Shown: positions 17,434 to 60,978 of the stretch, in pieces
Layout of the letters: each line of letters starts with the position of its first letter
How positions within the stretch are numbered: the first letter of the stretch is position 1
IMG/VR virus record: IMGVR_UViG_3300028833_000009
Length of the DNA: 64,000 nucleotides
Direction: 5' to 3' (one strand)
Origin: an uncultured virus (IMG/VR IMGVR_UViG_3300028833_000009)
Taxonomy: Duplodnaviria; Heunggongvirae; Uroviricota; Caudoviricetes
Translations under genes and position numbers: made by a program
Notes under the pieces: generated by a model
Database searches by the model: none
Told to the model about the DNA's origin: nothing
Seen by the model: only the letters and a program-made list of their open reading frames with translations

Positions 17434-17476
17434 GACACTTTCCTCCGAATTAATTTCCATTTTGATTTAGAATTGA

Positions 17477-19789: not shown

Positions 19790-19795
19790 TTTGAT

Positions 19796-20506: not shown

Positions 20507-20527
20507 TGTAATTCACTCCTGATGAGT

Positions 20528-25521: not shown

Positions 25522-25854
25522 TTAATATTCTTCAACACTGTGAGGAGAATAACGACGCATGGCTTCGATAGCCTGCGCATACAGAATCTCACGATCTTTC
25601 TCAGCCTTGATTGCTTCAGTCTTTGCATTCAGCAACTGAATTTCCTTTTCGAGTTTCTGTCGTTCGTACTTTTCACGCATTGATCCCAACTTTAAGTAAT
25701 GCGTAATGACCTGACTCGATGCGGTTCCGTTGCGAAGCTGTTCTTCTGCAAGATCAATGGCATAAGAAATGAGTTGGTCCTCACGACCCTCTCCAGTAAT
25801 CGCTGGAACCTGCTTCGGGGCAGGCTCTCTTAAAACTTTGCCCTTACTTTTCAT
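25522..25854 (-). CDS. Conserved phage protein, candidate terminase small subunit
   Basis: LAEEQLRNGTASSQVITHYLKLGS; position between cos candidate and HNH/terL (function inferred). Confidence 0.5.
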   Translation of the reverse strand: MKSKGKVLREPAPKQVPAITGEGREDQLISYAIDLAEEQLRNGTASSQVITHYLKLGSMREKYERQKLEKEIQLLNAKTEAIKAEKDREILYAQAIEAMRRYSPHSVEEY

Positions 25855-27145: not shown

Positions 27146-30115
27146 TTACTCATTATCTTTGTCAAGAGCTCTGTACAATGTAGAAATAGAGACACCAAGA
27201 CTTGCAGCAACTTCATCAGGAGTATAACCACGCTCAAGCCGCAGTTTGGCTGTTGACAATTTGGCAGGAGAAATACCTTTTGGAGTTTTCGGCATTGCGC
27301 GCTTCTTGACTTTATCAATATCGCAGTTCTTTAATATCTCTGTCAGCTTGTTGGAAGATACAGCACCAGCCTGAATAGCTTCCCACTGACGGTCAGTAAT
27401 ATCGATCAGGTTCTTCTTGGCACCTACACGATATCGTGCTTCCTCCAGACACTGGCCTTTGACTTTCTTTATTTTATCATTATCATATGCCAGCTCAGGA
27501 TTATCCTCTTTCTTCATATTAAAGAATTTGTTTGCAAGCATCTGGGCTTTACGCTCCAAAGGAGCATTTCTTTTTGCCTCCTTGAGGGCCATGTCAAGCT
27601 CATGAATTTCCTTCAGATATAGCTGCTTTGCAGAAATGTTCTGTTTGTAAGGACGAATATGCGAAGCTTCGAGACGTGCCGCATTACCTAATGCTTTCAT
27701 CTCATTTGCATATTCTCCATACACCTTTTCCATAGCCGTACCGGAAGATAAGACCATCGCGTCAGGTTCTTCATACATTTTCTGACTCTTCATCATTTTT
27801 GGAACGCGCTTCCAAATAACGTTGCCATTCTCATCCAGCACGGGCTCTTTGATTTTCTGTTTGGTCTTTGGATCAATTATAGGTTTGCCTGTCTCAGGAT
27901 CCTTAACCTCTCTTAATATACGCCGGGCCGTCTCCTTACCGGTGTACGTCCACAATTTAGCGCCGGTTACAGGATCAGAATAAAAAACCCGAGGCTTTCC
28001 AGTCTCGGGATCGATCAATTTCTTACCGGCCTTCCGGTGTGGAATATCTTTCTCGCTTGATGCCTGAGAAATAAGTGTTGATGCACCACCTTGCGCTCGC
28101 TTTTGATACTTCAGATATAGCTGACGAATATTATTATCTTCAGCAGACTGTCGCCAATCAAGGTCGTGCTTCTCCGCATCAATAATAACCATGGAATGCT
28201 TAACGGCTCTGGCAATTTCCGAATCGGGTGCCTTCTGAAGGGTCATGTCAGTAATAAGATTTGATACCAAACCCATCTGCATGCCCTTCTCATGAGGAGT
28301 CATCTGCTGATATGGTGAATCTGCAGGCCGTTTATAGCGCTCATGCATGGTCTCAGAAAATCCCTCAAGCTGCGGAAGAGGACTCTGTGTCTTTACGCTT
28401 CCGCTATTGTTGGGAATAACCAATACAGTATCGCCATCGAAATCCGCGCCGGATAACTGCTGTGCCACCTTCGGATTTATACCAACAGCATCCCGTTTCA
28501 CCGTTGGATCAGCTCCGCCAATTATACGACGACCTTCCTCAAAACGGTTGTTAACAACAAGCTCAGGAATTTCAAAGCGACCTGTATGAGGAAATCGCAC
28601 AAGGCATACGCGTTCGCCGTCACGGAAATTAGGTGCGTAAATTTCATGCTCATCCAAATGAGGAAATGGAATAATAAGCTGCGTCGCCTGTCTTGGCAAA
28701 GCAGCTGCCTTTAAATGAACAGCAGCCGAGTCACAATTATCCGCAAAGCTTTCCAACAAATTCTTCTTGACGACAGGATTATCGATGGCTTTGATCTCAT
28801 CAAATTCATCCTTCCGCATCCGTGCATCCAAAGATAACTGACGCTTGGCCAGAGGAATTGTCTGCTTCGCCAAAAATTGGCTGGACAAATTACGATTCCA
28901 TTCATCCCAGGTTCCCTGCTCATTCACAATATTGAGTGCGGATAAATGTTCCTTGCCATCCTTGCCAATATAGTGAGCCTGGAAATAACGCAGAGGATGC
29001 TTAGTCTCGCCTGCGTCATCCTGATTTATGCTGGCACCAAATGGGTTATTTGTGATCGGATCATTTTTCATGGGCTTGAGTACAGACTCACTGCCCTTTG
29101 CACCTTTCATAGGTGTGCCATCAGGTTTACTAGTGTTGATCCGAATATCAACGCCCTTGGGAAGATCATCCGCATATACAGCAACGCCTTTTGCAAAATG
29201 AGTTCCATCAACAGCAATACGTACCTGAGCATATGAATTGCGTCCCAGATTAATATCCTCAACTCCACGACGAAGTTCAATAAGACCATCCTTTTCAGCA
29301 CCGCCGTCTTTCGGATATGCAATCTGAATACGCTTGGAATCCACAGAAGTTGGTGTCTCCAATTTATGCGGATTGTCGTATTCACCATGCTCATAGTGGA
29401 ATCCAGGAAAATCAATCTCAGCATTCTTACGGGCCTTCTCAATATCAACCCAGGAAGCATCGGCAGGGGCCAGAACCTTCATGGTTGTGGCTTTGCCAGT
29501 TCCCATCTGAGGCTGTTCATGATATGAAATCTTGAATCCTTCTTCACGCAATAATGCAACCGCGTGCCGAAGCTTGTCTTTGGAAATGCCCATCTGACTT
29601 TCGCAGCCATGACCCACATCAATATACTTCTGTTCGGATATGGCTTTCTTCAGTTCCTCCGCAATGGCGCGTGTAGAGTTCTCTTTCACCTCATCCACTT
29701 TCTTCAAAACATTCCGAACAGTGGATTCCGGAATTTGCAGTTGCCTCGCGATCGCGATCTTGGAATATCCCTTATCTCTCAGCTTAAATACGGCGGCGTC
29801 CCTTCCGCGTGTAATGTTCTCGCTGGCAATATCAATCTTTGCCCGCAGCTGAGAGGTATTCATCTTCATGGATTTGGCGATCTCCTTCTGTGTCCAGCCC
29901 TTTTGTTTCAGGCTGGCAACATGTGCCTTAAAATCCATGTCCCCCTGATATGGATTTTCTCCGGAGCCCCAAGGATATCTGCCTGAATGCCGAGGCGTTC
30001 CGTAATGCGCAATATCCTCATCGCTCTCCTGTTCCAGAAATGCCTGAGCATTCTCAAGCGCTTCCTCAGAAATAGATACCACAGGTCTCTGGTTGGGTTT
30101 CGTCTGGCGTCCCAT
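27146..30115 (-). CDS. Phage RNA polymerase-like protein (DFDGD) with terminal HTH motifs
   Basis: LVRFPH and LSGADFDGDTV (DFDGD at 28430-28444), the double-psi-barrel catalytic loop. HTH-like segments at both termini. N-terminal IAHYGTPRHSGRYPWG. Confidence 0.75.
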   Translation of the reverse strand: MGRQTKPNQRPVVSISEEALENAQAFLEQESDEDIAHYGTPRHSGRYPWGSGENPYQGDMDFKAHVASLKQKGWTQKEIAKSMKMNTSQLRAKIDIASENITRGRDAAVFKLRDKGYSKIAIARQLQIPESTVRNVLKKVDEVKENSTRAIAEELKKAISEQKYIDVGHGCESQMGISKDKLRHAVALLREEGFKISYHEQPQMGTGKATTMKVLAPADASWVDIEKARKNAEIDFPGFHYEHGEYDNPHKLETPTSVDSKRIQIAYPKDGGAEKDGLIELRRGVEDINLGRNSYAQVRIAVDGTHFAKGVAVYADDLPKGVDIRINTSKPDGTPMKGAKGSESVLKPMKNDPITNNPFGASINQDDAGETKHPLRYFQAHYIGKDGKEHLSALNIVNEQGTWDEWNRNLSSQFLAKQTIPLAKRQLSLDARMRKDEFDEIKAIDNPVVKKNLLESFADNCDSAAVHLKAAALPRQATQLIIPFPHLDEHEIYAPNFRDGERVCLVRFPHTGRFEIPELVVNNRFEEGRRIIGGADPTVKRDAVGINPKVAQQLSGADFDGDTVLVIPNNSGSVKTQSPLPQLEGFSETMHERYKRPADSPYQQMTPHEKGMQMGLVSNLITDMTLQKAPDSEIARAVKHSMVIIDAEKHDLDWRQSAEDNNIRQLYLKYQKRAQGGASTLISQASSEKDIPHRKAGKKLIDPETGKPRVFYSDPVTGAKLWTYTGKETARRILREVKDPETGKPIIDPKTKQKIKEPVLDENGNVIWKRVPKMMKSQKMYEEPDAMVLSSGTAMEKVYGEYANEMKALGNAARLEASHIRPYKQNISAKQLYLKEIHELDMALKEAKRNAPLERKAQMLANKFFNMKKEDNPELAYDNDKIKKVKGQCLEEARYRVGAKKNLIDITDRQWEAIQAGAVSSNKLTEILKNCDIDKVKKRAMPKTPKGISPAKLSTAKLRLERGYTPDEVAASLGVSISTLYRALDKDNE

Positions 30116-30118: not shown

Positions 30119-30679
30119 TCATTCCTCCAGTTTCATTTTTTCAATCGTGTCGTTGAAACGCACGATCGTTTGCATAATTCTGGTGATCTCTTCGCCTTTC
30201 GGCTCACAAATCTCAATCGCGTCGTTCTGATAAATCCGCAACTGCATATCGCATTTGTCAGGCTGTTGGTCATATTCCAGACAAAACAGCGCTGCATAAA
30301 TCATCAGCTGTTCCATATGTGCCGGAATGGTTCCAGTCTTTAAATCGTGTATACGCAAAAAACGAGAAGACTCGTCGAAGGAAATAGCATCAGCTGTACC
30401 AAAGCAGTTTCTTGAAAAATATAGTGGCTGTTCTGGTTTTAGATTATATAGCAGCGCATCGTTTACATACATGTTCAGCGTCTTTTTAATCTTTGGCAGT
30501 TTGATTTTTAACTTAATGCACTGGCATGCAAAATCATGAAGCTCAGTACCTTTCTGCACGGCAAGGCTGCTCAAATATGCTTTGATCAGTTTGTCCTCAT
30601 CGTAATTAATCCAATGATACTTACTTGCTCCCAGAAATGCATGCTGTCCGATCAAGTCCGAATGTGGAATAAAGTTCAT
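30119..30679 (-). CDS. PD-(D/E)XK exonuclease (Cas4-like/DUF2800 type)
   Basis: GTELH, FGTADAI, IHDLKTG, QLMIYA. Confidence 0.75.
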   Translation of the reverse strand: MNFIPHSDLIGQHAFLGASKYHWINYDEDKLIKAYLSSLAVQKGTELHDFACQCIKLKIKLPKIKKTLNMYVNDALLYNLKPEQPLYFSRNCFGTADAISFDESSRFLRIHDLKTGTIPAHMEQLMIYAALFCLEYDQQPDKCDMQLRIYQNDAIEICEPKGEEITRIMQTIVRFNDTIEKMKLEE

Positions 30680-30947
30680 TCAGCACCTCGCTTTTGTTTT
30701 CAGGGCTGATGAATTTGGAAAATGACATGTTGTTCAGGAGATCCACATAATACTCCTGATTGGGTTGCTTCGCGGCATCTTTCTCCCGCTTGCATTCCAA
30801 TGAGCCCCATTTGTCTTTGTACAAAATTAACAGATCGGGGAATCCCTGCGGCGTATTGGAACCGTCATTTTTCAGAACCAGACTTCCTGGCAGCGTTGAT
30901 CGGATTTCCTTAATCAGCAAAGACTGAAAATGACTTTCCTTTCTCAT
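30621..30947 (-). CDS. VRR-NUC nuclease
   Basis: ESHFQ...QGFPDL...LECKR...QPNQ; start set at MRKES. Confidence 0.8.
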   Translation of the reverse strand: MRKESHFQSLLIKEIRSTLPGSLVLKNDGSNTPQGFPDLLILYKDKWGSLECKREKDAAKQPNQEYYVDLLNNMSFSKFISPENKSEVLNELYSTFGLDRTACISGSK

Positions 30948-31049
30948 CCCGGGTGTTCCCCTTTCTGTTAATCTTTTAAAGGAGATTTTCGTTATGTACA
31001 CGAAAACCACAAATGGTATGGGCTGCTGCTTCCCAATGCCCAACGCCAG

Positions 31050-31161
31050 TTTATGCAGATAAAAACGAATGGCGTGTTTGTATCAGTGCGGTATGAACCA
31101 GCATCTTTTTGAATGATTTAGCCTATCATCGAAGTAACGCCATTCTGCAATTCTGCATAAA
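31050..31161 (-). ncRNA. Structured leader RNA, copy A
   Basis: Nested stems TTTATGCAGA/TCTGCATAAA and GAATGGCGT/ACGCCATTC; shares loop motifs with 56532-56649. Confidence 0.65.
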
Positions 31162-31254
31162 AAATGAAGGACTCGTATATGTCTTGCGACACATCTTATC
31201 CTTCTCTCCTATTATAGGCCTAGTTTTTTTTGCGATTTTTAAAAAGCACAAAAA

Positions 31255-32457
31255 TCAGAATCCGGCAAAATCTTTCTCGTTAAAATTCTTCTTCTTGCTC
31301 AGTGCTCTGCTAATCGCCATGTCAATCCGCGAGCGACTGGACAGATGAAAATAGTGCAGATCAATATAAGGCGTATTGATTCTGTCAATGCGTCCGGCCG
31401 CCTGAGTCATCAGCTTGTAACTATAGTTTTGTGAATAGAAAATGATCGTGTCTGTCGTGATACAGTTCCATCCTTCTGCTCCGGCATTATACTGCACCAG
31501 ATATGCCCAACGGTTTCCCGTCGGCAGAGGTTCATGTTTGTGGCCGTTCCATTCGGCAATCTTTGTCGGGAGCTTCCGCAGAATTTCCAGTTCATAATCG
31601 AAGTTGTAGAAAATAATCGCTTTCGGATTTGCCTGAAGCAGCTGGCACACCATTTCAAAACGTGACGGGTCTTCATTGGTGATCTTCCGCAATATGCGGC
31701 ACAGTTCACCGGCATCTTCAATCGGTGTGTTCGTAAACGGATTCCACCGCTTCCGGATAATATCCTTACTCTTCTCAGCATCATATGGCAAATAAATCGT
31801 CTCGTGGTGCGGATGCGTTTCCTTCTTCTTTTCCATATGAACAGTAATCATGTTTCTTTGGCGTATCAATATACCTTCATTAAAATACCGTTCAATCTGC
31901 GGAAATTTACCCCATCGCTTCCATACGGCATGCTGATCCGTAAAATCTTTCTTGCTTCTGTAAAATCCGTTGGCAATAAATACCGGACAGTATTCGATCC
32001 AGGTATCACCAGGCGTTGCCGTCAGCAATATCCACCGGTTGGCTTTGGCAATCTTCAGAAATGCTTTCACCCACTTGCCATAACCAACCAGCCGCTGCTC
32101 ATCAAAAATAAAGAACGCGTTTTTGGCTTCTGTGTACTTGCCAATATTGTTCCAGCTATCCACATGCAGCTTTACACCGCATCCTTTCCCGTCTTCGAAT
32201 ATGGCAAACCGCTGTGCTTCCTTATGCCAGTCGCGGTCATCCCGCTTCTTGGCTGTCGTAATAATATACAGCGGAACCTTCCGGAAATGCGGGTCTCGTA
32301 TGTTGCGCTCGGGCCAGAGCGAGCCCCCGCACTCCTTCTGCAGGAAATATGCGAGGGCTGTAATGCTCTTCCCGATTCCGACGTCAGCGCATAATATCTT
32401 TCCGCTGTCAAGCCGGTCTACCGCGTCTTTCTGGTAGGAATATAGCTCAACCTTCAC
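31255..32457 (-). CDS. SF2 (SNF2/DEAD-like) helicase
   Basis: DVGIGKS, FIFDEQ, LTATP, QAAGRIDR. Confidence 0.88.
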   Translation of the reverse strand: MKVELYSYQKDAVDRLDSGKILCADVGIGKSITALAYFLQKECGGSLWPERNIRDPHFRKVPLYIITTAKKRDDRDWHKEAQRFAIFEDGKGCGVKLHVDSWNNIGKYTEAKNAFFIFDEQRLVGYGKWVKAFLKIAKANRWILLTATPGDTWIEYCPVFIANGFYRSKKDFTDQHAVWKRWGKFPQIERYFNEGILIRQRNMITVHMEKKKETHPHHETIYLPYDAEKSKDIIRKRWNPFTNTPIEDAGELCRILRKITNEDPSRFEMVCQLLQANPKAIIFYNFDYELEILRKLPTKIAEWNGHKHEPLPTGNRWAYLVQYNAGAEGWNCITTDTIIFYSQNYSYKLMTQAAGRIDRINTPYIDLHYFHLSSRSRIDMAISRALSKKKNFNEKDFAGF

Positions 32458-33061
32458 CGGCGATCATGTACTCCGCATACTTGCCGCCGAAATCATTAAC
32501 CGGAACTGCCATCGTATACATCGTCTTCAGATATCCCTTCTTCGCATCCGGATTTGCGATGCTGCGGCCATGAACATAAGGATGGATCACCATATCTACA
32601 TTCATCAGCTCTTCACTGTCCAGCCGGTACCACTGATCCGAAGGCACCAGTGCCATGCTCTTCTCGCCATTGAATTCACTGACCTTATAGATCTTCGGCG
32701 GATATTCACTGTTCTCATTCACAACGACTTCCGTGTAAATAAGCGCATGGTCAAAGGTATTTTTGTAATTGCTCATATAATCATTAAAGGATACGGTCAT
32801 CGTGGTCTCGCCATCCTCCAGCTGATGATCACGAACTTCCTTCACCTTAATATTCCATCCTGTGTCGTTCAGCCGCTCGGCATAGTCCTCATTCAGCACC
32901 AGAGAAAATGTCCGCTTTCCTCCGGCAGGATTTACCTTCGTAGGCTTCCCGGTAAAGTTCTTGTAAATCATGACAGCTTCTTCAACATTCAAGTTTCCGT
33001 TGATCAGCAGTTCAAATTTGCTCTTGGTATTCACATGGTTAATCGCATCAATATAATTCAT
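32447..33061 (-). CDS. Putative single-stranded DNA-binding protein
   Basis: YKNFTGK...NPAGGKRTFSL...GWNIK...KGYLKTM; between polymerase and helicase. Confidence 0.6.
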   Translation of the reverse strand: MNYIDAINHVNTKSKFELLINGNLNVEEAVMIYKNFTGKPTKVNPAGGKRTFSLVLNEDYAERLNDTGWNIKVKEVRDHQLEDGETTMTVSFNDYMSNYKNTFDHALIYTEVVVNENSEYPPKIYKVSEFNGEKSMALVPSDQWYRLDSEELMNVDMVIHPYVHGRSIANPDAKKGYLKTMYTMAVPVNDFGGKYAEYMIAGEG

Positions 33062-33078
33062 TGTTTTCTTTCTCCTTC

Positions 33079-36000
33079 TTATTCACCTAATATCTGGTGT
33101 TCAATGTTGTAACCTAGTTTGCAGCAATAACCGTAGTTATCATCTGAAAAATTCGGACAATCCGAACAGAATGGATACTCCGTGTTACCACATGGATGGT
33201 TCCACGGTGTCTCAATCTCAATCGGACTCTCCTTTTCCCTGGAAATATCATTCTCATCGATCACGAAAGTATCAAAATCTCCATACTTTCCAATCTGTTC
33301 CTTTGCATCATCCACCAGACAACGGAAATACTTCAGATCAATATAATCTTTCCAGTCTGATAGTTGATGCATACTTTCACTTTCCAGCCACCTGAATCCT
33401 TTGGTGCCGGTTGCGTAGCCATATTCTCCGCTGTCTTCCTTCCGCATCAGAAGGCCTCCGCCTTTTCCCGGCAATATGGGCATGAATTCGCCCGCCTTGC
33501 CTACGAAATGATACGAATGGCCTTCGGCGATGTCTTCCCGCAAAACGTCCATGTCCTTCTGCAGGTCTTCCATCTCGTTCCGAATCTTCTCCTTATCTTC
33601 ATCAGATATAGCAGGATCGGTCAGAAGTTTCGACAGTTTCCTGGATCTGGTTTTGATCTTTGCCAGATCCTTTTCTTCCTGGCTGACATCCTTTAGTCCT
33701 TCATTCAGATCCAGATACAGGGATGTCTTCACAGTCTTTGTTTCGCAGTAATCCCAGAAATCCAGCGGCTCCTTACTGAATAAGGTCTTAAATACATACG
33801 GATGTGCAAACTGAGCTCCTGTGGCCGTCCACCTTGTCGGCTCAATATACTCTGTATGATTCTTCTCCGCTTTCTCCTTCGCTTTCCGGCATTCCTTCAG
33901 CCATCCCGGATCGTCTTTCTCCCGCAGTGCAATATACACAGCGTGGTTCACCAGACAAATCCGTTCGTACTTACTTTCTACCTCAAAGGTGTAGCCGTAC
34001 TGCTTTCCGAAGTCCAGTACAAAATCCTGCAGTTCCTGGGTGGGATTCACAAGCTTGATAGAGTCGGTCTTGATATGTATCACATGACCGCCCATTGCCT
34101 GCACCTTTCTCCGCAGGGTCTCCATAAATAACGCGCCGCGCTTGGCAACCCAGTTGTCCACGTTTCGTGGATCCTTGAACCGGTTCTGAAAATGCGCTGC
34201 TGTCATTCCGTAAACAGAATTTAACGCAATCTTCAGCGCATGACTCAATGCATCCGCATCTTCGTCACTGGTCAGATATGGCGCAAGTCTTCCATCAAAC
34301 ATCTTCCGTGCTTTGTCGTAGTCTTTATGCTTGATCGCGATTCTTGCTTCATACAGATCGGCATAGTTCTTTGTAAAACGCCCAAATCCGTTTTCCACAA
34401 TTTCGCTGGTCGGATGCATACCCGCTACGTCAAATGTGATCACATGATAATATCGGCCTTCCTCCGCGTATACCCGGCCACCTTCTCCGATTGGTTCATC
34501 CAGAAAATAGCTCTTTCCGTGTTCAAATCTGTATTCCGGAAATTTCGCTTTCAGATCAGGATAAATAAACTCATGCCAGGGCTCACGCACATCGCCGAAT
34601 ATCAACTGTGCGGTCAGATTGTTTGTGGAATCATTTACAGTCATACCTGTCAACGCGGCCAGAATCTGACGGGCCTTAAAATCCGCCTGCCATCCCTTGC
34701 TCAGGAAATACGCTTCCGTTGCCAGTACATCGTTCTCACAATATACGGCAAGTCTTTCCCATTCGCTTTCCGGCAATGGCTGGCTCCAATCGATCTCCAT
34801 CTCCTTATGCGGCAGATGCATTTCGATCTCGATTTTCTTCAGACCTTTCTTGTCACTGGAAACATCAAGCGTGTCGGTATAGCTCATGTTTCTCGCTTCC
34901 CGCCATGGAATACGATTGCCTTTCACAATAATATCCTGGCTTAGCTCAAACACCTGCTCCGGCGTATAGCCCATCCAAAGTGCGTACAGAATATAGTTGT
35001 CATATCCCGTAACATTATGTCCGACAATCCGCATAGTCATCAGCCTCTCAATATCGATCGGCTTCGGATTATACAGACGCACACACTTCTTCACCGGGCC
35101 ATCCGGCTTCAATATACCTGCAACGCCATCCGGTTCCAGTTCCTTGTAAATCACCAGCGTCAGATTCCGTACAACTTCACAGTCCAATATGATGATCGGA
35201 GCATCTTTTTCATATGATCCATCCAGAATATTGGCTGTCGGCTGTTCAACTTCTTTCGGCCATACAAACTCCATGTCATAATATCGCCTGACACATTCTT
35301 CCTTGTTGTGATGACTGTTTGCAGCAAATGCATACACTGCTTCACTTAAATCCCGCAGGTCATACGTCATGTTGCTTTCCTGCGCCATCTTCAGAATATC
35401 GGCAATATACTTCACGCAGGTAATGGTCTTTGGCTCCTCTCCGTAAGGACGACACTCTTTCTTGATTGCCTGTAATATCAGGTTCCGCAAATGCCGGTCA
35501 TCCTTCACTCCTTCCCAGTTGATCACTTTCTTCTCCTTTAATGGCAGTCCGCTGGAAATATGGGCAATTGGCAGATCATTACACAGAAATACCCTTCTTC
35601 GTATTGACAGAAGCTTATCTTCCGGAAATACCTTGATCTCAATATGTTCATCAAACATACTGCTCAGGTCGTTGACATCTCCGTCATACCAATAATATGA
35701 GTGAATCCCTCCGCCACTGTTACTTGTCTCCGCATAAGTCTTCGGCCACTGACTGCTTCCGGCTTTCTTCATGTTGATTTCCAGATTCTTTTTGCCGTCC
35801 GCGTCCCGAAAATCAAAGTCAATAAATATCAGCTGGCTGGGTCCCTTCACATAATGGGTCTTCGATGTATCCAGATCCTTTAGTTTTGTCTTTACATTTT
35901 TCCAGGTGTATTTCAGCGGATGGTCCGGATTATCAATTTCATACTGTGCAGGATATTCCGCAAGAATATCATCCAGCAGACTGTGCTGTTCCTCGAATTT

Positions 36001-37431
36001 CAGCCAGCCGGATTTATAAACTTTCTTTTTGGCTTCTTCATAAACAACAGGTGTTTCTTCGGATTTCATCTCTGCAGCTTCTGCTTTTCTGTTTTCTCTT
36101 CTGGTTTGTTCAGAAGATGAATGATTAAACTTTTCAAGATTTAAATCACTGAACCAGCTTCGAACAGAGCTTCCGTTAATACTCGTTGCTTTCTGAAAAT
36201 TATTGAAATAACTTTTCGCTTCTTCAATAATTTCAAAACGCTTTCGAATATAATCCACACCTGATTCCGCGCAATATGCCTTCCACATGGCCCATAAATC
36301 ATTTGCTGTTACGCCACCGTTACGAATAAATACTTCCTGCTTCTCTTCCATGAAATTGAAGAATGGATCTGTGCGATACATCATTCGTTCAGGAATATAG
36401 CCACTGTAATAAGTTCTTCCCAAACTCTGATATACATCCAGACAATGCTTTGCAATCGCTCCAAGCTCAAAATTCGTTTGCTCGACAAGCCGGTCATATT
36501 TTCGTTCAGGTTTAATGATTCGTCCGCTGGGCTCAACATCAATCAGTCTTCGAATAATACCACTCTTTGCATCCGTAATCTTTACAGGTTTATTTGTACC
36601 AAGCATAAGCATACAGATCGGCTTTTTGGAATATCGATTCTTGAACTTTTCATTCACTTTTAACTGCTCATGGCTGACAAGCTGATTCATTAATGCATTA
36701 CTTTCAATCCGATTCAACTCAGTATCTGCATCAATTGCAATCAACGGATCATCTGCCAGAAAATCCAGATTGAAATTATCTCCGCCTCTGACAAGATTCT
36801 CCGCTTTGAATGTCGTATAATATCCATCAAACAGTTTCATCACGATGTTCAATATCGTACTCTTACCGCTTCCCTGTGGACCATAAAAAACCAGAAACTT
36901 CTGAATCTTTCTTGAATCTCCGGAAATAATGGAGCCAATCGCCCATTCAATCTTCTCCCGTTCTTCCGGATCATACAAAGTGGATATGATCTCTTCCCAT
37001 GCAGGTGCTTCACCATCCTGTAAAGAATACTGAAGGGATTTTGAGATATGGTCATCCTTTGTTACAACGGAATCTTTAAAGGTTACCTTTTCATCAAGCA
37101 GTTCATAGTCATCCGGAAGATTTCGAATAAACGCTTTAAACTCCGCCCACTTGCCGCTTGAATTATCTTTCAGGTACTTTGGAATGATTACTTTGGAATC
37201 AAACAATACTGCATTTCGTTCATCGCGAATAAAGTTATCAATCTCTTTATCCACGATTCTTTTAACAGCGCGTTCGTTACGATTCCATTTTTTCTTGCTC
37301 TCATCCCAAACTGCATAAAAGGCTCCGCCGCGAATCATGATATCGTGATACTCTTCGTTTACCTGAAAATCCGGATAAACTTCAATTCGTCCGCCACGTA
37401 CTTCTCGATGTCTGATTTCATAAAAGTCCAT
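33079..37431 (-). CDS. Helicase(SF3/D5)-primase-family B DNA polymerase fusion (1450 aa)
   Basis: Walker A YGPQGSGKST; PrimPol-like FIDFD...SGGGIH; exonuclease LDCE/HNVTGYD/YCENDV; PolB motifs DVAGMHPT, KIALNSVYG, IKTDS. Confidence 0.88.
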   Translation of the reverse strand: MDFYEIRHREVRGGRIEVYPDFQVNEEYHDIMIRGGAFYAVWDESKKKWNRNERAVKRIVDKEIDNFIRDERNAVLFDSKVIIPKYLKDNSSGKWAEFKAFIRNLPDDYELLDEKVTFKDSVVTKDDHISKSLQYSLQDGEAPAWEEIISTLYDPEEREKIEWAIGSIISGDSRKIQKFLVFYGPQGSGKSTILNIVMKLFDGYYTTFKAENLVRGGDNFNLDFLADDPLIAIDADTELNRIESNALMNQLVSHEQLKVNEKFKNRYSKKPICMLMLGTNKPVKITDAKSGIIRRLIDVEPSGRIIKPERKYDRLVEQTNFELGAIAKHCLDVYQSLGRTYYSGYIPERMMYRTDPFFNFMEEKQEVFIRNGGVTANDLWAMWKAYCAESGVDYIRKRFEIIEEAKSYFNNFQKATSINGSSVRSWFSDLNLEKFNHSSSEQTRRENRKAEAAEMKSEETPVVYEEAKKKVYKSGWLKFEEQHSLLDDILAEYPAQYEIDNPDHPLKYTWKNVKTKLKDLDTSKTHYVKGPSQLIFIDFDFRDADGKKNLEINMKKAGSSQWPKTYAETSNSGGGIHSYYWYDGDVNDLSSMFDEHIEIKVFPEDKLLSIRRRVFLCNDLPIAHISSGLPLKEKKVINWEGVKDDRHLRNLILQAIKKECRPYGEEPKTITCVKYIADILKMAQESNMTYDLRDLSEAVYAFAANSHHNKEECVRRYYDMEFVWPKEVEQPTANILDGSYEKDAPIIILDCEVVRNLTLVIYKELEPDGVAGILKPDGPVKKCVRLYNPKPIDIERLMTMRIVGHNVTGYDNYILYALWMGYTPEQVFELSQDIIVKGNRIPWREARNMSYTDTLDVSSDKKGLKKIEIEMHLPHKEMEIDWSQPLPESEWERLAVYCENDVLATEAYFLSKGWQADFKARQILAALTGMTVNDSTNNLTAQLIFGDVREPWHEFIYPDLKAKFPEYRFEHGKSYFLDEPIGEGGRVYAEEGRYYHVITFDVAGMHPTSEIVENGFGRFTKNYADLYEARIAIKHKDYDKARKMFDGRLAPYLTSDEDADALSHALKIALNSVYGMTAAHFQNRFKDPRNVDNWVAKRGALFMETLRRKVQAMGGHVIHIKTDSIKLVNPTQELQDFVLDFGKQYGYTFEVESKYERICLVNHAVYIALREKDDPGWLKECRKAKEKAEKNHTEYIEPTRWTATGAQFAHPYVFKTLFSKEPLDFWDYCETKTVKTSLYLDLNEGLKDVSQEEKDLAKIKTRSRKLSKLLTDPAISDEDKEKIRNEMEDLQKDMDVLREDIAEGHSYHFVGKAGEFMPILPGKGGGLLMRKEDSGEYGYATGTKGFRWLESESMHQLSDWKDYIDLKYFRCLVDDAKEQIGKYGDFDTFVIDENDISREKESPIEIETPWNHPCGNTEYPFCSDCPNFSDDNYGYCCKLGYNIEHQILGE

Positions 37432-44762: not shown

Positions 44763-44834
44763 AATAGTTATCCCCTTTCAATTTACAAATATTGACCTAT
44801 CGGTCTATTCTATGCGTTGTATTTTTTGCGATTT

Positions 44835-53465: not shown

Positions 53466-53843
53466 TCATGAACGAGGCTTATTCATGAATTTCGTCGCTG
53501 ACGAATTGATTATATGTCCCTGTTCTTCGCTTCGGATCACATCCGTGACGTTTCGTCTATTCATTACATTTCCTATCATTGTTCCAGCCAGATTACCAGC
53601 AACCTGGACTAATGTTGGCAGTATCCACTGATACTGTGCTTTCTCAGTTGCTTCTGTCTGTGTTTCATTGCGTTCAGATTCCGTAATAATCGACAGCTGT
53701 TCGTTCAGAAATGCATACTGCGATCGGTCCTCCTGTTTGGACGGATCCAAAGCTGCCATACGGCGAATCAGGTCTTTTTTCAAATCGATCGTCGTGACTT
53801 CGTCTTCATTTTCTTCCTCATCATAATTTACATACTCGGCCAT
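53466..53843 (-). CDS. Cassette ORF, conserved phage protein
   Basis: AGNLAG...EEQGHIINSSATKF. Confidence 0.65.
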   Translation of the reverse strand: MAEYVNYDEEENEDEVTTIDLKKDLIRRMAALDPSKQEDRSQYAFLNEQLSIITESERNETQTEATEKAQYQWILPTLVQVAGNLAGTMIGNVMNRRNVTDVIRSEEQGHIINSSATKFMNKPRS

Positions 53844-53959
53844 CTTTTCAAAGTCTCCTTTCTTAATATCGGAAAGACACTGTTTATCTCTCCATTATTA
53901 AACCTTGCTTCGTTTGCGAAAATAAAAAGCCAGGCATTGCTGCCCAGCTATTGGTTTTG

Positions 53960-54181
53960 TTACTTTTGTTCCACGATCATCGTAAACATTCCCATTTTAT
54001 TATACTTCTGTTGCTTTCTAATGCTTTGTAATAGCGTCATTCTTTTTGGAATTGTGACCGTCAATGGATAAACTCCATTTAATTGTCGGTTTACATCTCC
54101 ATAACCTTCTTTTGATGCTATCAGCATCGCATCCTTTTCATTGTCCAACAAAATTACAATTACATACTTTTTTTGAAACAT
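53960..54181 (-). CDS. Cassette ORF, hypothetical
   Basis: AAGGAGG RBS. Confidence 0.6.
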   Translation of the reverse strand: MFQKKYVIVILLDNEKDAMLIASKEGYGDVNRQLNGVYPLTVTIPKRMTLLQSIRKQQKYNKMGMFTMIVEQK

Positions 54182-54247
54182 TTACAATCCTCCTTAAATA
54201 TAGAATTTAGAATACAATCCCACTTAAGGAGTTGGTTTGGTTGCGAA

Positions 54248-54370
54248 TCATGGAATCAGATTCAGGCCAAGGTCTGATCCAAGCACTCCAAGCAGAATAA
54301 ATATCACGATAACAATGATTAACAGATCAAAACCTTCTCTTTCTTTATCTTGCCTGCGCATTTGAATCAT
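54248..54370 (-). CDS. 40-aa single-TM peptide directly after the pentamer array
   Basis: Manual translation MIQMRRQDKEREGFDLLIIVIVIFILLGVLGSDLGLNLIP. Confidence 0.45.
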   Translation of the reverse strand: MIQMRRQDKEREGFDLLIIVIVIFILLGVLGSDLGLNLIP

Positions 54371-54390
54371 ACCTCTTTTCCTGAATATCT

Positions 54391-55112
54391 TTACCCTTAC
54401 ATACCCTTGCTTTACCTCACCTTAACCGTACCATTCACTACGGCACGTTACCCAACCCGACGTCGCGTAACCTTTACCGGACCGGACTGCACTATACGAT
54501 GCATAACCTTTACATCACGCAACTGTATACTACCGTGCCCAACCATCACTTAACCGGCCTGAACAAGACATTACCATTACTTGACAACACACTACTTCAC
54601 CTTACCATTACTTGACAACACGCCACCTCACCTTACCGTTACTCCACTAAACTGAACCTTGCATAACCTTCACATAACTTCACGCAACAATTCCGCACCT
54701 TACCGCTACTCTACGCTACTCAACGAAACCCCACACAACCTTCACTTCACAAAACCTCACTTTACCTTTACTTAACGTTTCATAACCGGACTTAATAATG
54801 CCATACGTTACAACGCCATACCTTGACTTACCTTCACGTAACACTACCTCACCGTTACTCCGCGTTGCGATACCAGACTATACCATCACACAACAGAAAC
54901 ACACCACGACCCTACGTTACATAACCTTGACCTCACATAACCCTACTGTACCATGACGAAACACAACGTATCTGCACTATACCTTCACTTCACATTACGT
55001 TGCTCTGCCTTGACTCAACAGATCTGTACCCGGCTTTACCTTTACAGCACTGGACATGACTGGACTTAACCAAACCATCACATAACCGGACTCATCCGCA
55101 CTTTACCTTCAC
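54391..55112 (-). repeat. Non-coding array of NNN-GT pentamers punctuated by N(A)NGGT hexamers; putative guide RNA array
   Basis: Minus strand reads GAAGGT AAAGT GCGGA TGAGT CCGGT TATGT GATGGT TTGGT TAAGT CCAGT CATGT CCAGT GCTGT AAAGGT... for ~720 nt; no minus-strand ORF of 60 aa or more. Confidence 0.9.
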
Positions 55113-55118
55113 AAAATA

Positions 55119-55736
55119 TCAGCTCTTAGTGCGCTCCAGAATTTCGTAGGTAAAACGTCCTTTTCCGGAATTTCTCCACTGACCGGTACCGTTATAACGA
55201 CCATGATTCAGGCACTCAAGTACCATTTTTTCATGCTCGTCCAGCAGACAAATAATCGTGAAAGTCATCTCTGCGCCTGCAGGAATAGCTTCACTGGTGG
55301 CAAGAGCAATCCGCTCACCCTGGGCAGTAGATGCTCGAAGCGGGCGCTGGCAGAGAGTAATATCGCCATCAAACTCGATCGGAATGGCCCTGGGTTCCAC
55401 AAAAATAAGTCCGTCGATCTCCTTTTTGTAGGACTTAATCTTACTGCAGGCAGTTCCGGGAATTTTCCGAAGCATACCGACCTTGTCCTTCAAAAATCCC
55501 TTCCACTGATAGTCCCACATAATTGGCTGATAGTTTACTCTCGGAAATACAGTAATGGACTTTTCGAATTTGTCTTCAAGATCGATGGCAGATTCCTCTA
55601 CAGCTGCAGTTTCTTCCTTTGCTTTCGCCTCATCTCCGGATTTTGTGGAAATATAGGTCGCATGAATGTTCGGATCAGCATTGGAAGTGCCAAGAAGTTC
55701 TTCAGTAGTGGTAACCTTAACTTTCAATGTAATCAT
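55119..55736 (-). CDS. Stand-alone RAMP/Cas7-like RNA-binding protein
   Basis: LKVKVTTTEELLG first strand, PIMWDYQWKGFLKD, EAIPAGAEMTFTI, C-terminal Gly-rich loop GTGQWRNSGKGRF. Confidence 0.75.
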   Translation of the reverse strand: MITLKVKVTTTEELLGTSNADPNIHATYISTKSGDEAKAKEETAAVEESAIDLEDKFEKSITVFPRVNYQPIMWDYQWKGFLKDKVGMLRKIPGTACSKIKSYKKEIDGLIFVEPRAIPIEFDGDITLCQRPLRASTAQGERIALATSEAIPAGAEMTFTIICLLDEHEKMVLECLNHGRYNGTGQWRNSGKGRFTYEILERTKS

Positions 55737-55765
55737 CGTGTTAATCTCCTTTTTAAAAATATTGT

Positions 55766-55972
55766 TTAGTCTTTTGTAGCAATATAGTGTTTTAGTGTGT
55801 CACGTGAATCATAAGCTTCATCAGACCACCAGTTCGTTTTGTCTTTAATAATTTGCTGTAGTTTATATCCTTGCTGCTCAATTTCCCGAAGTTTCTTCGA
55901 GATAACAAAGTCCGGAATACAAAAATCAATCAGATTTTTCCCAGTGTCCTTAAACTCGACAAGCAGCGTCAC
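55766..55972 (-). CDS. Hypothetical 68-aa protein in the RAMP operon
   Basis: GTG start overlapping the upstream stop; GGAGGT RBS. Confidence 0.6.
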   Translation of the reverse strand: MTLLVEFKDTGKNLIDFCIPDFVISKKLREIEQQGYKLQQIIKDKTNWWSDEAYDSRDTLKHYIATKD

Positions 55973-56496
55973 TTCTTTTTACCTCCGTCAACCTTTTTAG
56001 CATCCTCAACGTAATACCCATACAAACCCGCAATATCAAAATCAATTCGTGCCTGAATATAGTTTAGTTCAAACCGCTCTGCCTGCTTCAACACACAAAT
56101 ATACTTTGCTGCTCTGATCAGTTCATCATCAGTTGCACCGAATTTCTTGATAATAATCATGAGCGTATAAATACTGCTCATTTCAGTAGAAATCTCAGAA
56201 GGCGTTGGTTTACGCATTAATCCGCCAATTGCATAATCAACCGTTGGATTATAGTTTGCGAGATCTTCTGATTTTTCCATCAGTTCACCGATAATCCGTT
56301 CACCTTCTGAACGCACTCCTCGGTTACGAATATCTTCTGTAGAATCCATGGTAAAAGATTCTTCGATGTTTTTCGAGGAACGGTTCTTATATTTCCGAAT
56401 TCCCCATTCCACAGCTTTTGTAAGTAAAGATCCTGCACCTGCTGAAATTGCCACAAGTCCCACCGTTCCTAATGTAGATCGATTGTTGTTGTCCAA
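55969..56496 (-). CDS. Protein with N-terminal hydrophobic segment and C-terminal copy of an RNAP subdomain
   Basis: Start set at TTG 56496 after AAGGAGG; 21/65 ungapped identities (hand count) to RNAP residues encoded at 28106-28300. Confidence 0.7.
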   Translation of the reverse strand: MDNNNRSTLGTVGLVAISAGAGSLLTKAVEWGIRKYKNRSSKNIEESFTMDSTEDIRNRGVRSEGERIIGELMEKSEDLANYNPTVDYAIGGLMRKPTPSEISTEMSSIYTLMIIIKKFGATDDELIRAAKYICVLKQAERFELNYIQARIDFDIAGLYGYYVEDAKKVDGGKKK

Positions 56497-56531
56497 TGTG
56501 GTCTTTCCTCCTTTAAAAATGATAAAAGAAA

Positions 56532-56649
56532 GGAGAAGCGGACTAATTCGATAACAGTATTTTTGTTTTGGAATTCCGCGCTCATTACGAGTCGCGCTTT
56601 CCACTCTTTCCATAATCGAAGTAACTGTTATCTGCAGTTCCGCTTCTCC
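56532..56649 (-). ncRNA. Structured leader RNA, copy B
   Basis: GGAGAAGCGGA/TCCGCTTCTCC 11-bp closing stem plus U-tract; inner GATAACAGT/ACTGTTATC; starts right after the promoter motif. Confidence 0.7.
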
Positions 56650-56675
56650 ATTATCAGGCTTGTATTTTTTGCGAA

Positions 56676-57059
56676 TTATACGGATTTAGAATTGTCTAAA
56701 TAATCATCAAACAGATTCATAAATAACTTTTTTCTTTCTTTTCTGACAGTTTCTGACGGTTCACTAGGATCCATCAATGTAACTTTGTCTATAATTTTTT
56801 CATAGTCTTTTCTGGAAAGTTCACGATCATTCACAGTAACCCAGGTTTCGAACTGTTCAGAACATTCAGGGCAAAGATCAAACTTTGGATACCGTAAAAT
56901 ATAGTCGCAGGTTTCATACTCAGCATTTCCACGTTTTGCGAAAGTAAGATCCTCAATGTGAATATAAGGATCGTCATTCTCAAATGGATCAAAACACTTT
57001 TTGCAACGATCACATTTAATTGCTTTACTCATTAACATCAAGCTCCTTCTGGATAACAT
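56676..57059 (-). CDS. CxxC zinc-binding protein
   Basis: KCDRCKK...DLCPEC. Confidence 0.65.
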   Translation of the reverse strand: MLSRRSLMLMSKAIKCDRCKKCFDPFENDDPYIHIEDLTFAKRGNAEYETCDYILRYPKFDLCPECSEQFETWVTVNDRELSRKDYEKIIDKVTLMDPSEPSETVRKERKKLFMNLFDDYLDNSKSV

Positions 57060-57292
57060 CCATACTTATAGAAATGCATCATGTCATAGAGAAAATCTTT
57101 ATTATGCAGTAGTTTTGTTGGAATATAGAATTGCTTAAAATGTGCCTGTTTCATAGATAATTTTCCAATTCGTTGGTTTCGTTCTGCCAATGCCTGCATG
57201 AGCCATAAAATTTCATCTTCATAAATCACAGGATCTTTTGGAGGAATCATCTCAATCCGCTTGTTCATGCTGTTTTTCTTCTCCTTTTTCAA
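57038..57292 (-). CDS. Hypothetical protein
   Basis: ORF in operon. Confidence 0.5.
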   Translation of the reverse strand: MKKEKKNSMNKRIEMIPPKDPVIYEDEILWLMQALAERNQRIGKLSMKQAHFKQFYIPTKLLHNKDFLYDMMHFYKYGCYPEGA

Positions 57293-57461
57293 GCATTCTG
57301 TAAATATGTTTGCAACGGTTGTAGCCTGTACATCGAATCAGATTTTCGGTATATAAATCTTCTGTACCCGCATGAATTGATAGTTTATTAATTTCCAGAT
57401 TCAATTCCGGGCAGCCTTTACAAATATCCCCCAGGCATTCAACATTCATCTGTATCGTCAT
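57252..57461 (-). CDS. Small Cys-rich protein
   Basis: CKGCP...RC...RC. Confidence 0.55.
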   Translation of the reverse strand: MTIQMNVECLGDICKGCPELNLEINKLSIHAGTEDLYTENLIRCTGYNRCKHIYRMLEKGEEKQHEQAD

Positions 57462-57691
57462 GCAGGCTCCTTTTCTGATGATTCCATGCTGTCAATCATC
57501 CACTGCAAATACACCTGTGCTTTCTTCAGATCCTCCAGGCCATTCTTCATCTTATGTCTGCTGATATATTTCAGTACATTACCCATACAGAATCCCTGAA
57601 AAGCTTCCGGAGTCATTTTGTCGCGAATATAATTGATCACTTCGATGCTTCCGAATGTATAGTGTGAAGGTGAATGAACATTATCAGACAT
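57458..57691 (-). CDS. DUF3310 protein
   Basis: DNVHSPSHY...IEVI...GNVLKYISR...KNGLEDLKKA. Confidence 0.85.
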   Translation of the reverse strand: MSDNVHSPSHYTFGSIEVINYIRDKMTPEAFQGFCMGNVLKYISRHKMKNGLEDLKKAQVYLQWMIDSMESSEKEPA

Positions 57692-57706
57692 TGCTTTGTA
57701 TCCTCC

Positions 57707-58015
57707 TTAGTTTAAATATGGGCTGACCGCTTTCGGTTCAACCCGTAATGTTCCAAAATTACCATCTGCTTTTGCGATACCGAGTAATAAAGATCCTACA
57801 GGGCAACCTTGTTCACGCATCCAGTCAGATCCTTCCTGCACCATGTCTGCCCAAAGCACAGTATCGTCATTGGTTAAATATCCACGCAGAATGGCAAGAT
57901 CCAGCATCTTACGTATCTGACCAATATTGATTCTGGTTTCCTGGATTAAATTTACTTTCTTCTTTTCATCCATTGGCTTTCTTCGCCTTCTTTTTCTTGG
58001 CAGTCTGATCAACAC
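57707..58015 (-). CDS. Hypothetical protein (start probably MDEKK)
   Basis: ORF in operon. Confidence 0.5.
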   Translation of the reverse strand: MLIRLPRKRRRRKPMDEKKKVNLIQETRINIGQIRKMLDLAILRGYLTNDDTVLWADMVQEGSDWMREQGCPVGSLLLGIAKADGNFGTLRVEPKAVSPYLN

Positions 58016-58466
58016 CGGAATTTACAATCTTATTGACTCTGGAATTGTTCTCATACATTTTCTTGGCGAGTGCTGCACAGAAAGCATAATATTTATTGAA
58101 TTTTTCTCCCTTTGCTTTCTTTACAACAGTCTTGGTTCCATCTTTCCAGAAAACAACCGTGGCAGGATTATTATAAATGATACGTTCAGGCGTATAAGCT
58201 GCTGGCTGTGTATATTTATCCACTATTTTTATAGCAGCTTCATACAAATTAGCATTAACTATGGAATCAAGATAATCAGGTCGCGCAACTACTTTCTTAT
58301 ATGGAATGGTGATATTGCCCTGACAATCGCATGAATCTTTATCCCAGCCATATGTCGTTGTAGCAGAAAGACTATTGGAAATATTTGGACCAATGTTTGC
58401 TGAAGCTGCCGTCATTTTGTTTAAAATTTCACTTGTTGCTTTGATACCGAAATCACACTTAGCCAT
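57966..58466 (-). CDS. Conserved phage protein
   Basis: IIYNNPATVVFWKDGTKTVVK...ALAKKMY. Confidence 0.75.
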   Translation of the reverse strand: MAKCDFGIKATSEILNKMTAASANIGPNISNSLSATTTYGWDKDSCDCQGNITIPYKKVVARPDYLDSIVNANLYEAAIKIVDKYTQPAAYTPERIIYNNPATVVFWKDGTKTVVKKAKGEKFNKYYAFCAALAKKMYENNSRVNKIVNSGVDQTAKKKKAKKANG

Positions 58467-58568
58467 TGTGGTTTCTCCTCCTCAAAATATAAAAGTTAGT
58501 AATAAGAAAGGAAGGAGCCGTTTTTCACAGCTCCTCTCCTATATATAGGCTTGTAATTCTTGCGAATT

Positions 58569-58919
58569 TTAGCCATAACATACTCTGTAGGTTTTGTCCT
58601 TGTCTAAACCCAATTTGTCTGCCAGCTTCCAACTTGGTTCAATTATACCAACTAACCATCCAAACGAATCTTTGTCACCTGCAAATACTTCCCATCCTTT
58701 TTCACATAGTACATTGATTACACTCCAGTTGCAATTCATTGGTTGACTTATGTCAATCAATAAATCCTCCAGATTATAATCAAGATCTCCTGCTTCCAAA
58801 TATAAGATGCTTTCATCATCTTCGCACGGTTGAAAATCCTCCTTATGATTCTTAAACGTCTCCTCAAGTTTATCACTGAGAATACCAGCATTCTTGATTT
58901 CTTCCATCAAATTGTTCAT
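58569..58919 (-). CDS. Cassette ORF, hypothetical
   Basis: GAGGAGG RBS; GDKDSFGWL. Confidence 0.65.
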   Translation of the reverse strand: MNNLMEEIKNAGILSDKLEETFKNHKEDFQPCEDDESILYLEAGDLDYNLEDLLIDISQPMNCNWSVINVLCEKGWEVFAGDKDSFGWLVGIIEPSWKLADKLGLDKDKTYRVCYG

Positions 58920-60744: not shown

Positions 60745-60978
60745 CTAATCTATGCCTTGTATTTTTTGCGAATCATTATTCCTTGCTGCTCTTTTAGTTT
60801 CATATAATGCTATATCAATTGCATCATTTACATTTTTATAGCATGCATCACACATAAGGTATTTAGCATATCGTCCACAGTCTCCATGATCCCATCCAAT
60901 ATTTAATTCTGTAAATGATTCATAGAATGGAAAGGGCTTTCTACAAATATCGCACTGCTTCACATCATTTGCTAGCAT
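60745..60978 (-). CDS. CxxC zinc-binding protein
   Basis: QCDICRK...MCDAC. Confidence 0.6.
   Translation of the reverse strand: MLANDVKQCDICRKPFPFYESFTELNIGWDHGDCGRYAKYLMCDACYKNVNDAIDIALYETKRAARNNDSQKIQGID

Follow-up and report, generated by a model that had tools for sequence, protein, structure and literature searches.

The window analysed here, a 64,000-nucleotide stretch of DNA from an uncultured virus (IMG/VR record IMGVR_UViG_3300028833_000009), comes from a siphovirus-like phage of the sheep gut, and its recognisable genes all lie on the minus strand. Among its small genes is one for a 175-residue protein, P0001, in which an N-terminal hydrophobic anchor and a charged linker are followed by a domain homologous to a single segment of the large RNA polymerase candidate encoded elsewhere in the window (Table 1). 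The frame at 55969-56496 is an intact small gene, and the original prediction, which a model had made from the letters and reading frames alone, gave both its coordinates and its strand correctly. The longest frame at this position covers 55969..56613 on the minus strand and encodes 214 residues from an ATG; public collections hold the 175-residue form (P0001) in one source and the 214-residue form (P0223) in others. The TTG codon at 56496 is the most likely start, better than the ATG of the longer form, because a strong ribosome-binding site, AAAGGAGG, lies 10 nucleotides upstream at 56514-56507.

The small gene and its polymerase-like domain

The N-terminal hydrophobic segment that had been predicted is present at residues 8-26, though it is marginal for a membrane helix: the Kyte-Doolittle maximum over 19 residues is 1.48, and values of 1.67 and 2.29 are found at the same place in two metagenomic proteins, P0007 and P0013, that are described below. 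These residues likely form a single membrane helix, and the positive-inside rule, applied to the Lys/Arg-rich stretch that follows, would have the C-terminal domain face the cytoplasm.

Several comparisons establish the homology of this domain. BLASTP aligns the small and large proteins with 38.5 bits and an E value of 2e-7 (24 of 75 positions identical), and their Smith-Waterman score of 83 was reached by none of 1000 shuffled sequences (mean 38.2, standard deviation 5.3, maximum 73). The phage protein family of the polymerase, phrog_4291, is matched directly at E 8.8e-6, with residues 117-205 of the 214-residue form aligned to positions 540-633 of the 909 in the profile. Profile comparison by hhalign of five stand-alone proteins against 54 polymerases gives a probability of 99.3% and E 2e-20 over 91 columns, and pairs P0001 residues 74-164 with residues 578-672 of the window polymerase. 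The ungapped alignment on which the original prediction had been built, 56011-56205 against 28106-28300, contains the claimed 21 identities in 65 positions on recount, and the significance of the match, which had been named as one of the checks to make, is borne out by the BLASTP, hhalign and shuffling results together. The prediction was also right in placing the copied segment just C-terminal to the DFDGD loop (loop at 558-562, segment at 578-672). No further open reading frame (ORF) in the window matches the domain profile. Pfam, NCBIfam and PADLOC return nothing credible for P0001 or for the other stand-alone forms described below, and P0001 has no neighbour in the Atlas at 0.9 or above.

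In having this region, P0001 resembles the phrog_4291 polymerases of Lactococcus phage 1706, FP_oengus and the actinophages. Unlike them it has no DxDGD or R-x-P motif, no helix-turn-helix (HTH) domains and nothing that aligns to the polymerase barrels, in agreement with the predicted absence of catalytic motifs, and it has gained the N-terminal hydrophobic anchor.

The 989-residue parent protein matches phrog_4291 with E 0 and 1072.8 bits and carries Pfam HTH families at both ends. Its match to the RNA-dependent RNA polymerase family PF05183 is below threshold (E 0.006; cut-off 23.8 bits). At least 9 of 12 family proteins scanned give similar sub-threshold matches (E up to 0.05, all below 23.8 bits), and in four of those nine the match stays collinear from the metal-binding loop as far as profile positions 512-538 (of 582). 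Among 54 aligned full-length relatives of the window polymerase (alignment A2), every sequence has a D[FY]DGD motif with an R-x-P 40-60 residues upstream; in the window polymerase R507-F-P509 lies 51 residues before D558. Two further motifs, both within the segment, follow the first Asp of the loop by 50-61 residues in 53 of the 54 sequences and by 77-88 residues in 51. The segment is the most conserved stretch of the whole family, with 14 invariant columns between positions 614 and 663 (M614, G615, N619, L620, D623, S641, M642, V643, I645, D646, K649, H650, L652 and I663).

The landmarks of two characterised polymerases suggest what this segment is. In QDE-1 they are R962-x-P964, D1007-D1011, bridge-helix residues L1082, M1084, N1087 and R1091, and trigger-loop residue D1116 (PMC9508822), and in the crAss-like phage protein gp66 they are the DFDID motif at 1361-1365, a bridge helix at 1529-1559 and a trigger loop at 1598-1636 (10.1101/2020.03.07.982082). 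The window polymerase shows the same chain order of R-x-P loop, metal loop, bridge helix and trigger loop, equivalence being judged from spacing and from the collinear sub-threshold Pfam matches, with R507/P509, D558-D562, N619 and D646 as the corresponding residues and an Asn-to-Asp spacing of 27 versus 29 in QDE-1. Because motif order and spacing agree with both proteins, polymerase residues ~606-672 are probably the equivalents of the bridge helix and trigger loop. A sequence search of solved structures with the polymerase, the 54-sequence profile and the domain profile found only HTH or chance matches.

Table 1. Coordinates of the small gene, the polymerase and other features. Positions are those of the window unless a contig is named.
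Feature	Position	Strand	Basis or remark
Small gene, 175 residues (P0001): N-terminal hydrophobic anchor, charged linker, C-terminal polymerase-like domain	55969..56496	-	
Hydrophobic Gly/Ala-rich stretch, codons 8-26, then Lys/Arg-rich stretch	56419..56475	-	Kyte-Doolittle
Polymerase-like domain, codons 74-164	56005..56277	-	hhalign, BLASTP, phrog_4291
Small-gene leader: conserved box (56659-56680), long hairpin, small hairpin	56497..56680	-	
Box or box-core sites	56659-56680 (in leader 56497-56680), 58550-58571, 60756-60777, 44817-44831	-	
Terminator-like sites bracketing the region	58536-58512; 53949-53928	-	
HTH-flanked, YonO/RdRP-like single-chain RNA polymerase candidate, 989 residues (phrog_4291, '1706 family')	27146..30115	-	
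DFDGD metal-binding loop, residues 558-562	28430..28444	-	invariant in alignment A2
Polymerase residues 578-672, segment copied in the small gene	28100..28384	-	
ORF of 68 residues, GTG start overlapping the small-gene stop (GTGA)	55766..55972	-	no family match
Phage protein of 205 residues, glycine-rich C-terminus ('RAMP' of the original prediction)	55119..55736	-	
Three head-module proteins with N-terminal Pfam DUF7211	24859-25506, 18983-19789, 19796-20506	-	E 6e-12 to 7e-14
Tail genes	2-13841	-	PHROG scan
Head and packaging genes	14522-24298	-	PHROG scan
Exonuclease, endonuclease, helicase, 1450-residue polymerase-primase	30119-37431	-	PHROG scan
Numerous small unknown ORFs	up to 64000		PHROG scan
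G007, ORF of 120 residues	L114:1489-1851	+	
G007, copy of box and leader	L114:2013-2177		
G019, ORF of 63 residues, little beyond the segment itself	L195:1073-1264	-	

Stand-alone copies in related phages and the leader of the gene

An exhaustive phmmer search of 1.84 billion representatives with P0001 gave nine matches at E ≤0.001: P0001 itself, two full-length polymerases, a 628-residue polymerase piece, two repeat proteins that we took as spurious, and three short proteins, P0007 (198 residues), P0005 (190 residues) and P0009 (110 residues). A word-index search with P0001 returned P0001 alone. The corresponding profile search returned 95 short proteins, and of the 17 inspected, 16 were near-consensus polymerase pieces that either sat at the end of a contig or ran into other sequence; the remaining one, P0013, is a second protein of the anchor type. 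No relatives of P0001, P0013 or P0009 were found in viral contigs, nor any site fitting a degenerate DNA pattern that would encode the anchor peptide; neither metagenome contigs nor species genomes gave a match to a profile of the anchor type (A4).

The P0005 family is represented at 16 viral loci (L001-L016) at 82-98% identity. Four of the five P0005 records searched hold both the short frame and a 907-residue polymerase, 35-47 kb apart, and the fifth record is only 53% complete. The domain has evolved under purifying selection in this family (ratio of nonsynonymous to synonymous substitution rates, dN/dS, 0.09-0.17), its C-terminus is extended by a different, second part (weak DUF7736, E 2e-4), and its gene adjoins membrane-protein genes. 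Five IMG/VR relatives of the window polymerase were also searched, of which two, G007 and G006, are complete. G007, whose polymerase is 78% identical to that of the window, has a 120-residue ORF matched by the profile at E 6e-9 (hhalign probability only 57%); G006 has no second copy of the segment. Among 30 diverse polymerase-bearing records of at least 40 kb one, G019, carries a second copy, an intact ORF of 63 residues, and none was found in a 62-kb species-genome contig with a polymerase. Stand-alone copies thus occur in 2 of the 36 polymerase-bearing records whose choice did not depend on a copy, and are sporadic. All copies are surrounded by small genes in the accessory or early region, and their neighbours are not constant; wherever the whole record could be searched, the phage with a copy also has the full polymerase.

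A tree built from 64 rows and 101 columns of the segment groups P0001 with P0007 and P0013 with support of 100/85, away from the window polymerase. The branches of these three are very long (5.8 changes per column, versus a median of 0.11), and long-branch attraction is a possible cause of the grouping. The grouping is backed by an architecture common to all three, which are of one build: N-terminal hydrophobic anchor, linker, domain. The P0005 group forms a separate clade among the polymerases that is not sister to the polymerase of its own phage, so the tree requires at least two changes of state, i.e. at least two separate lineages of stand-alone copies. At the start of its domain P0001 has a conserved N-P ... 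Y stretch that is common in other polymerase lineages and missing from the window's own polymerase. Since P0001 both sits on a long branch away from that polymerase and resembles other lineages in this stretch, it is a diverged derivative and no recent duplicate of the window's polymerase gene. The original description of it as a stand-alone paralog of a polymerase subdomain therefore holds as regards homology and fails if taken to mean a recent copy of the phage's own gene. Recurrence of free-standing copies at differing divergence suggests that expression of the segment alone has been selected repeatedly, and the repeated capture of one segment, with the full enzyme present where this could be searched and with purifying selection in one family, points to an action linked to the polymerase.

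In public protein sets (P0021, P0096, P0098, P0040 and P0036) polymerase pieces break off within or just past the segment into unrelated sequence, which in one case leads into a homolog of the window protein at 25522-25854, and one 337-residue protein begins exactly at the segment and extends to the C-terminal HTH. Deletions, split genes or assembly joints may account for them.

Upstream of the small gene lies a structured leader that opens with a 22-nucleotide box. Three matches to the box with at most three mismatches are found in the window, where none is expected, all on the minus strand, and its 15-nucleotide core, TCGCAANAANTACAA, has four exact copies, each of them intergenic and on the coding strand. 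Two of the box sites lead into a hairpin beginning with GGAGA, after which comes a U-rich run. The RNA of the leader folds with a z score of -4.75 (none of 200 shuffles was equally stable), and its terminal small hairpin pairs a U-rich run with the ribosome-binding site. Box and first hairpin half recur in G007 beside the stand-alone ORF (83% identity over 62 nucleotides), and when the two leaders are compared by eye both stems have changed on both sides with pairing kept. Box and hairpin are candidates for a promoter, a leader or a cassette boundary. A sigma-70 promoter scan did not rise above shuffle level, and Rfam gave only chance-level matches in 53800-57200.

RNA-library contigs (at least 99% identity; two metatranscriptome runs from one sample) cover 56358-56597 and 55617-56000 at a depth of 2-5, coverage to which DNA carry-over may contribute and in which the uncovered parts of the gene are uninformative; the small gene is probably expressed. 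Some sheep-gut DNA and RNA-library contigs match only 56417-56676, a piece made up of box, leader and the 27 anchor-bearing codons at the start of the gene, and are unlike the window in their flanks, so a related genome may join the same leader and anchor piece to a different downstream part. A DNA contig with a joint that skips 56535-57977 was set aside as untrustworthy, as it has only 21 letters on one side.

These results bear on the idea that the small gene is a remnant, a recombination scar from the most conserved stretch of the polymerase gene whose frame is open by chance. Such an origin could be read into the sporadic copies and the 16 near-consensus polymerase pieces among the 17 short matches inspected, since many such pieces in public sets are joined to unrelated sequence. 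It is hard to reconcile with an intact frame that is preceded by a strong ribosome-binding site, a structured leader and a conserved box of its own, and parts of which are covered by RNA-library contigs. The architecture common to P0007 and P0013, the purifying selection in the P0005 family and the retention of hydrophobic core positions despite very long divergence likewise argue against a scar, which we consider very unlikely.

Residues kept and lost, and possible functions

The stand-alone forms differ in how much of the segment they preserve. Of the seven positions scored as polar invariants (G615, N619, D623, S641, D646, K649 and H650), P0001 keeps none, having S, T, I, I, Q, R and F in their place, and neither do P0007 and P0013. 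Two are kept in P0009, three in the 120-residue ORF of G007, five of the six that can be aligned in the 63-residue ORF of G019, and six in the P0005 family. P0001 retains the hydrophobic residues M614, L620, V643, L652 and I663, and most hydrophobic positions of the segment are kept. Given the replacement of the polar invariants and the lack of a barrel, the small protein is not expected to polymerise; judged by its sequence, the product of 55969-56496 is a derivative of the 1706 polymerase family that cannot act as an enzyme.

The combined loss of all polar invariants, retention of hydrophobic ones and gain of an anchor suggests that P0001 is a membrane-tethered, catalytically dead mimic of the polymerase module. 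The anchor would hold the domain at the membrane's cytoplasmic face, where the mimic could compete for the surfaces that the module normally packs against or binds, and would thereby hinder a polymerase of the 1706 family. The target might be the enzyme of a superinfecting relative, giving exclusion at the site of entry, or the phage's own delivered enzyme after early transcription. We tentatively favour such interference with a 1706-family polymerase, the relative's or its own after the early phase, as a possible rather than a probable function.

The original prediction had offered two functions, a dominant-negative inhibitor of the phage's own or a rival phage's polymerase and a decoy for host defence sensors. 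A decoy would display the conserved segment of the polymerase, which the phage cannot change, and soak up a host inhibitor, protease or sensor that the anchor then sequesters. The piece copied is indeed the one with 14 invariant columns (614-663), the P0005 family and the 63-residue form keep nearly all polar invariants, and long branches are typical of arms-race genes. In Bodo saltans virus a decoy role has been suggested for pieces of essential genes (PMC5871332). In P0001, P0007 and P0013, however, all seven polar invariants are lost and little conserved surface is left to imitate; this pattern, together with hydrophobic retention, fits a dead mimic and fits less well a decoy that needs a conserved surface. 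The segment is moreover probably buried in the folded enzyme, binding of an abortive-infection sensor would trigger the sensor, PADLOC gave no matches, and we know of no host defence aimed at the 1706-type polymerase family. On this balance we think a decoy unlikely.

It is also conceivable that only the fold has been reused, a captured helical domain now serving a job outside transcription, e.g. as the cytoplasmic part of a membrane protein for lysis timing, injection blocking or host takeover. The extremely long branches, the loss of all functional polar residues, the fusion to an anchor that the polymerase lacks, the different C-terminal part of the P0005 form (weak DUF7736, E 2e-4) and the absence of a conserved partner gene near the different copies would all fit. 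Yet at least two separate lineages have taken up or preserved one segment with identical boundaries, always alongside a full polymerase where this could be searched, and a role unrelated to the polymerase is therefore somewhat doubtful.

The retention of polar residues under selection in the P0005 family raises the further idea of a positive cofactor, a free module that would dock on polymerase or template and alter promoter choice, processivity or placement, e.g. by membrane tethering near the entering DNA. Where multisubunit polymerases are split, the polypeptide with the bridge helix and trigger loop is indeed a different one from that with the metal loop. The phage polymerase has its own module in the same chain, though, and P0001 has lost the polar residues, which makes a cofactor most improbable.

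Interference with a polymerase, the function that we favour, would place P0001 beside proteins of known types. Small membrane-anchored superinfection-exclusion proteins include lactococcal Sie2009, streptococcal Ltp and Imm of phage T4, and Ltp reportedly acts on a virion protein of the incoming phage. Like these, P0001 is small and has one likely N-terminal anchor; they are expressed early or in lysogeny. Unlike them, P0001 is without sequence relation to the group (it has no PHROG or Pfam match to them), and we know of no exclusion protein derived from a polymerase. Truncated paralogs act as dominant-negative regulators in the cases of the Tn5 inhibitor protein and plant microProteins: these shortened forms preserve a surface through which the larger protein interacts but lack its activity, as P0001 may do by analogy. 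Such regulators derive from one and the same gene or from a near paralog, and their partners have been demonstrated, whereas P0001 is deeply diverged.

Extra small genes made from pieces of the virus's own essential enzymes are described, with a proposed decoy role, for Bodo saltans virus (PMC5871332), and the window phage is similar in keeping a small gene built from a piece of its own essential enzyme. Bodo saltans virus is a giant virus of a eukaryote with a large multigene family of fragments fused to ankyrin repeats, whereas the window phage is tailed and has one copy, fused to a membrane anchor and derived from a single-chain two-barrel polymerase. The literature that we surveyed on YonO-like and two-barrel phage polymerases contains no free-standing copy of the segment; stand-alone copies in the 1706 polymerase family, the choice of this segment and its fusion to an anchor are new here.

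The possible delivery of the polymerase by the virion would favour interference, as would the gene's own box and structured leader, its place in the early, accessory region and the RNA-library contigs on it. The N-terminus of the polymerase (29966-30052) contains an H-Y-G ... W-G motif common to the three DUF7211 proteins of the head module, at a level below the Pfam model, and the homolog in phage 1706 bears the database label 'structural protein'; the ReqiPoco6 label for its homolog was given by similarity only. A DUF7211-like N-terminus may be a head-packaging tag, and these features are suggestive of a polymerase that is delivered by the virion. Phages with such a delivered single-chain two-barrel enzyme might repeatedly spawn mini-genes for the bridge helix and trigger loop, and the membrane-anchored dead module might be taken up by, or block, the refolding polymerase of a superinfecting relative. 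We regard this extended version as quite unlikely; if true, it would represent a new class of superinfection exclusion, aimed at the active site of an injected enzyme.

Several points weigh against interference with a 1706-family polymerase. The polymerase activity of the 1706 family is itself only predicted: in the preprint by Koert et al. the HTH protein 'could potentially have RNA polymerase activity', a prediction accompanied by an HHpred match of 95.68% to RNA-dependent RNA polymerase for a 1706-family protein (10.1101/842583), and the 1706 protein is one of the five YonO-like families of Ruprich-Robert and Thuriaux 2010 (PMC2919709). Virion delivery rests on a database label and a short common motif. 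The module is probably buried in the folded polymerase, which would limit a competitor to the folding stage or to another partner. The hydrophobic stretch of P0001 is marginal (1.48) as a membrane helix. The gene is rare, with only three weak stand-alone matches among the 1.84 billion representatives and no ortholog beyond these, and it is absent from the close relative G006. Finally, the P0005 family and the 63-residue form retain six of seven and five of six polar residues, so that being catalytically 'dead' is no general property of the copies.

More than 8000 protein clusters matched the polymerase family itself, and the gene for a 1706-type polymerase marks a large group of phages as their signature. 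A natural, selected copy of a piece adjacent to its catalytic loop would be a ready-made probe of how the module packs and works, and the small gene is a candidate for a novel means by which phages control or sabotage a polymerase.

Genome setting and neighbouring genes

Gene order was taken from a PHROG scan of 68 window ORFs (Table 1). The window holds the module of helicase, HNH endonuclease, RecB-type exonuclease, HTH protein and small conserved protein that is given as the group signature in Koert et al., where Lactococcus phage 1706, Faecalibacterium phage FP_oengus and an actinophage supercluster are listed as members (preprint 10.1101/842583). No tRNA was found in the window, nor any Rfam match at gathering scores, and PADLOC returned no matches. 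The same DNA is present in sheep-gut metagenome runs. The sole species-genome match to the polymerase is the 62-kb contig (L198; 73% identity), which was binned with a Bacteroidota genome. Window genes have strong Shine-Dalgarno sites, e.g. at 56514-56507 and before 55736, and a Firmicutes-like host therefore fits better than Bacteroidota.

The original prediction had placed the small gene in a 'RAMP operon', a label for which we find little basis. The 205-residue gene concerned has no curated family match, and the name goes back to its resemblance to an Atlas cluster (of an unnamed family) that was automatically named 'Cas system-associated RAMP superfamily protein'; the nearest Atlas cluster with Pfam RAMPs reaches only 0.76. 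Neither this protein nor the 68-residue neighbour has a Pfam, PHROG, NCBIfam or PADLOC match. Membership in the RAMP or Cas proteins was not borne out, there being no profile match and the adjacent repeats being irregular and not CRISPR-like. The 205-residue protein has 255 relatives in viral contigs, with 54-65% identity among the best 80. That the polymerase-like domain travels with this gene was rejected: none of 80 homolog loci, searched over 6 kb on each side, carries it.

Directly 3' of the 205-residue gene, 54400-55118 on the minus strand is a stretch of 720 nucleotides without ORFs of more than 71 residues. No similar stretch lies downstream of the 205-residue homologs at any of the 80 loci. 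It is composed of 65% G+T and 10% C, contains many GTGAAG and GTAAAG words, shows a 31-nucleotide periodicity in 54571-54643 and has an RNA fold with z -2.6 against shuffles. Further downstream, the RNA-library contigs are 5-10 times deeper at 53800-54230 (17-30) than over the rest of 53800-58600 (0-5), and this interval contains a 73-residue ORF (53960-54181) and one of the two terminator-like sites (53949-53928).

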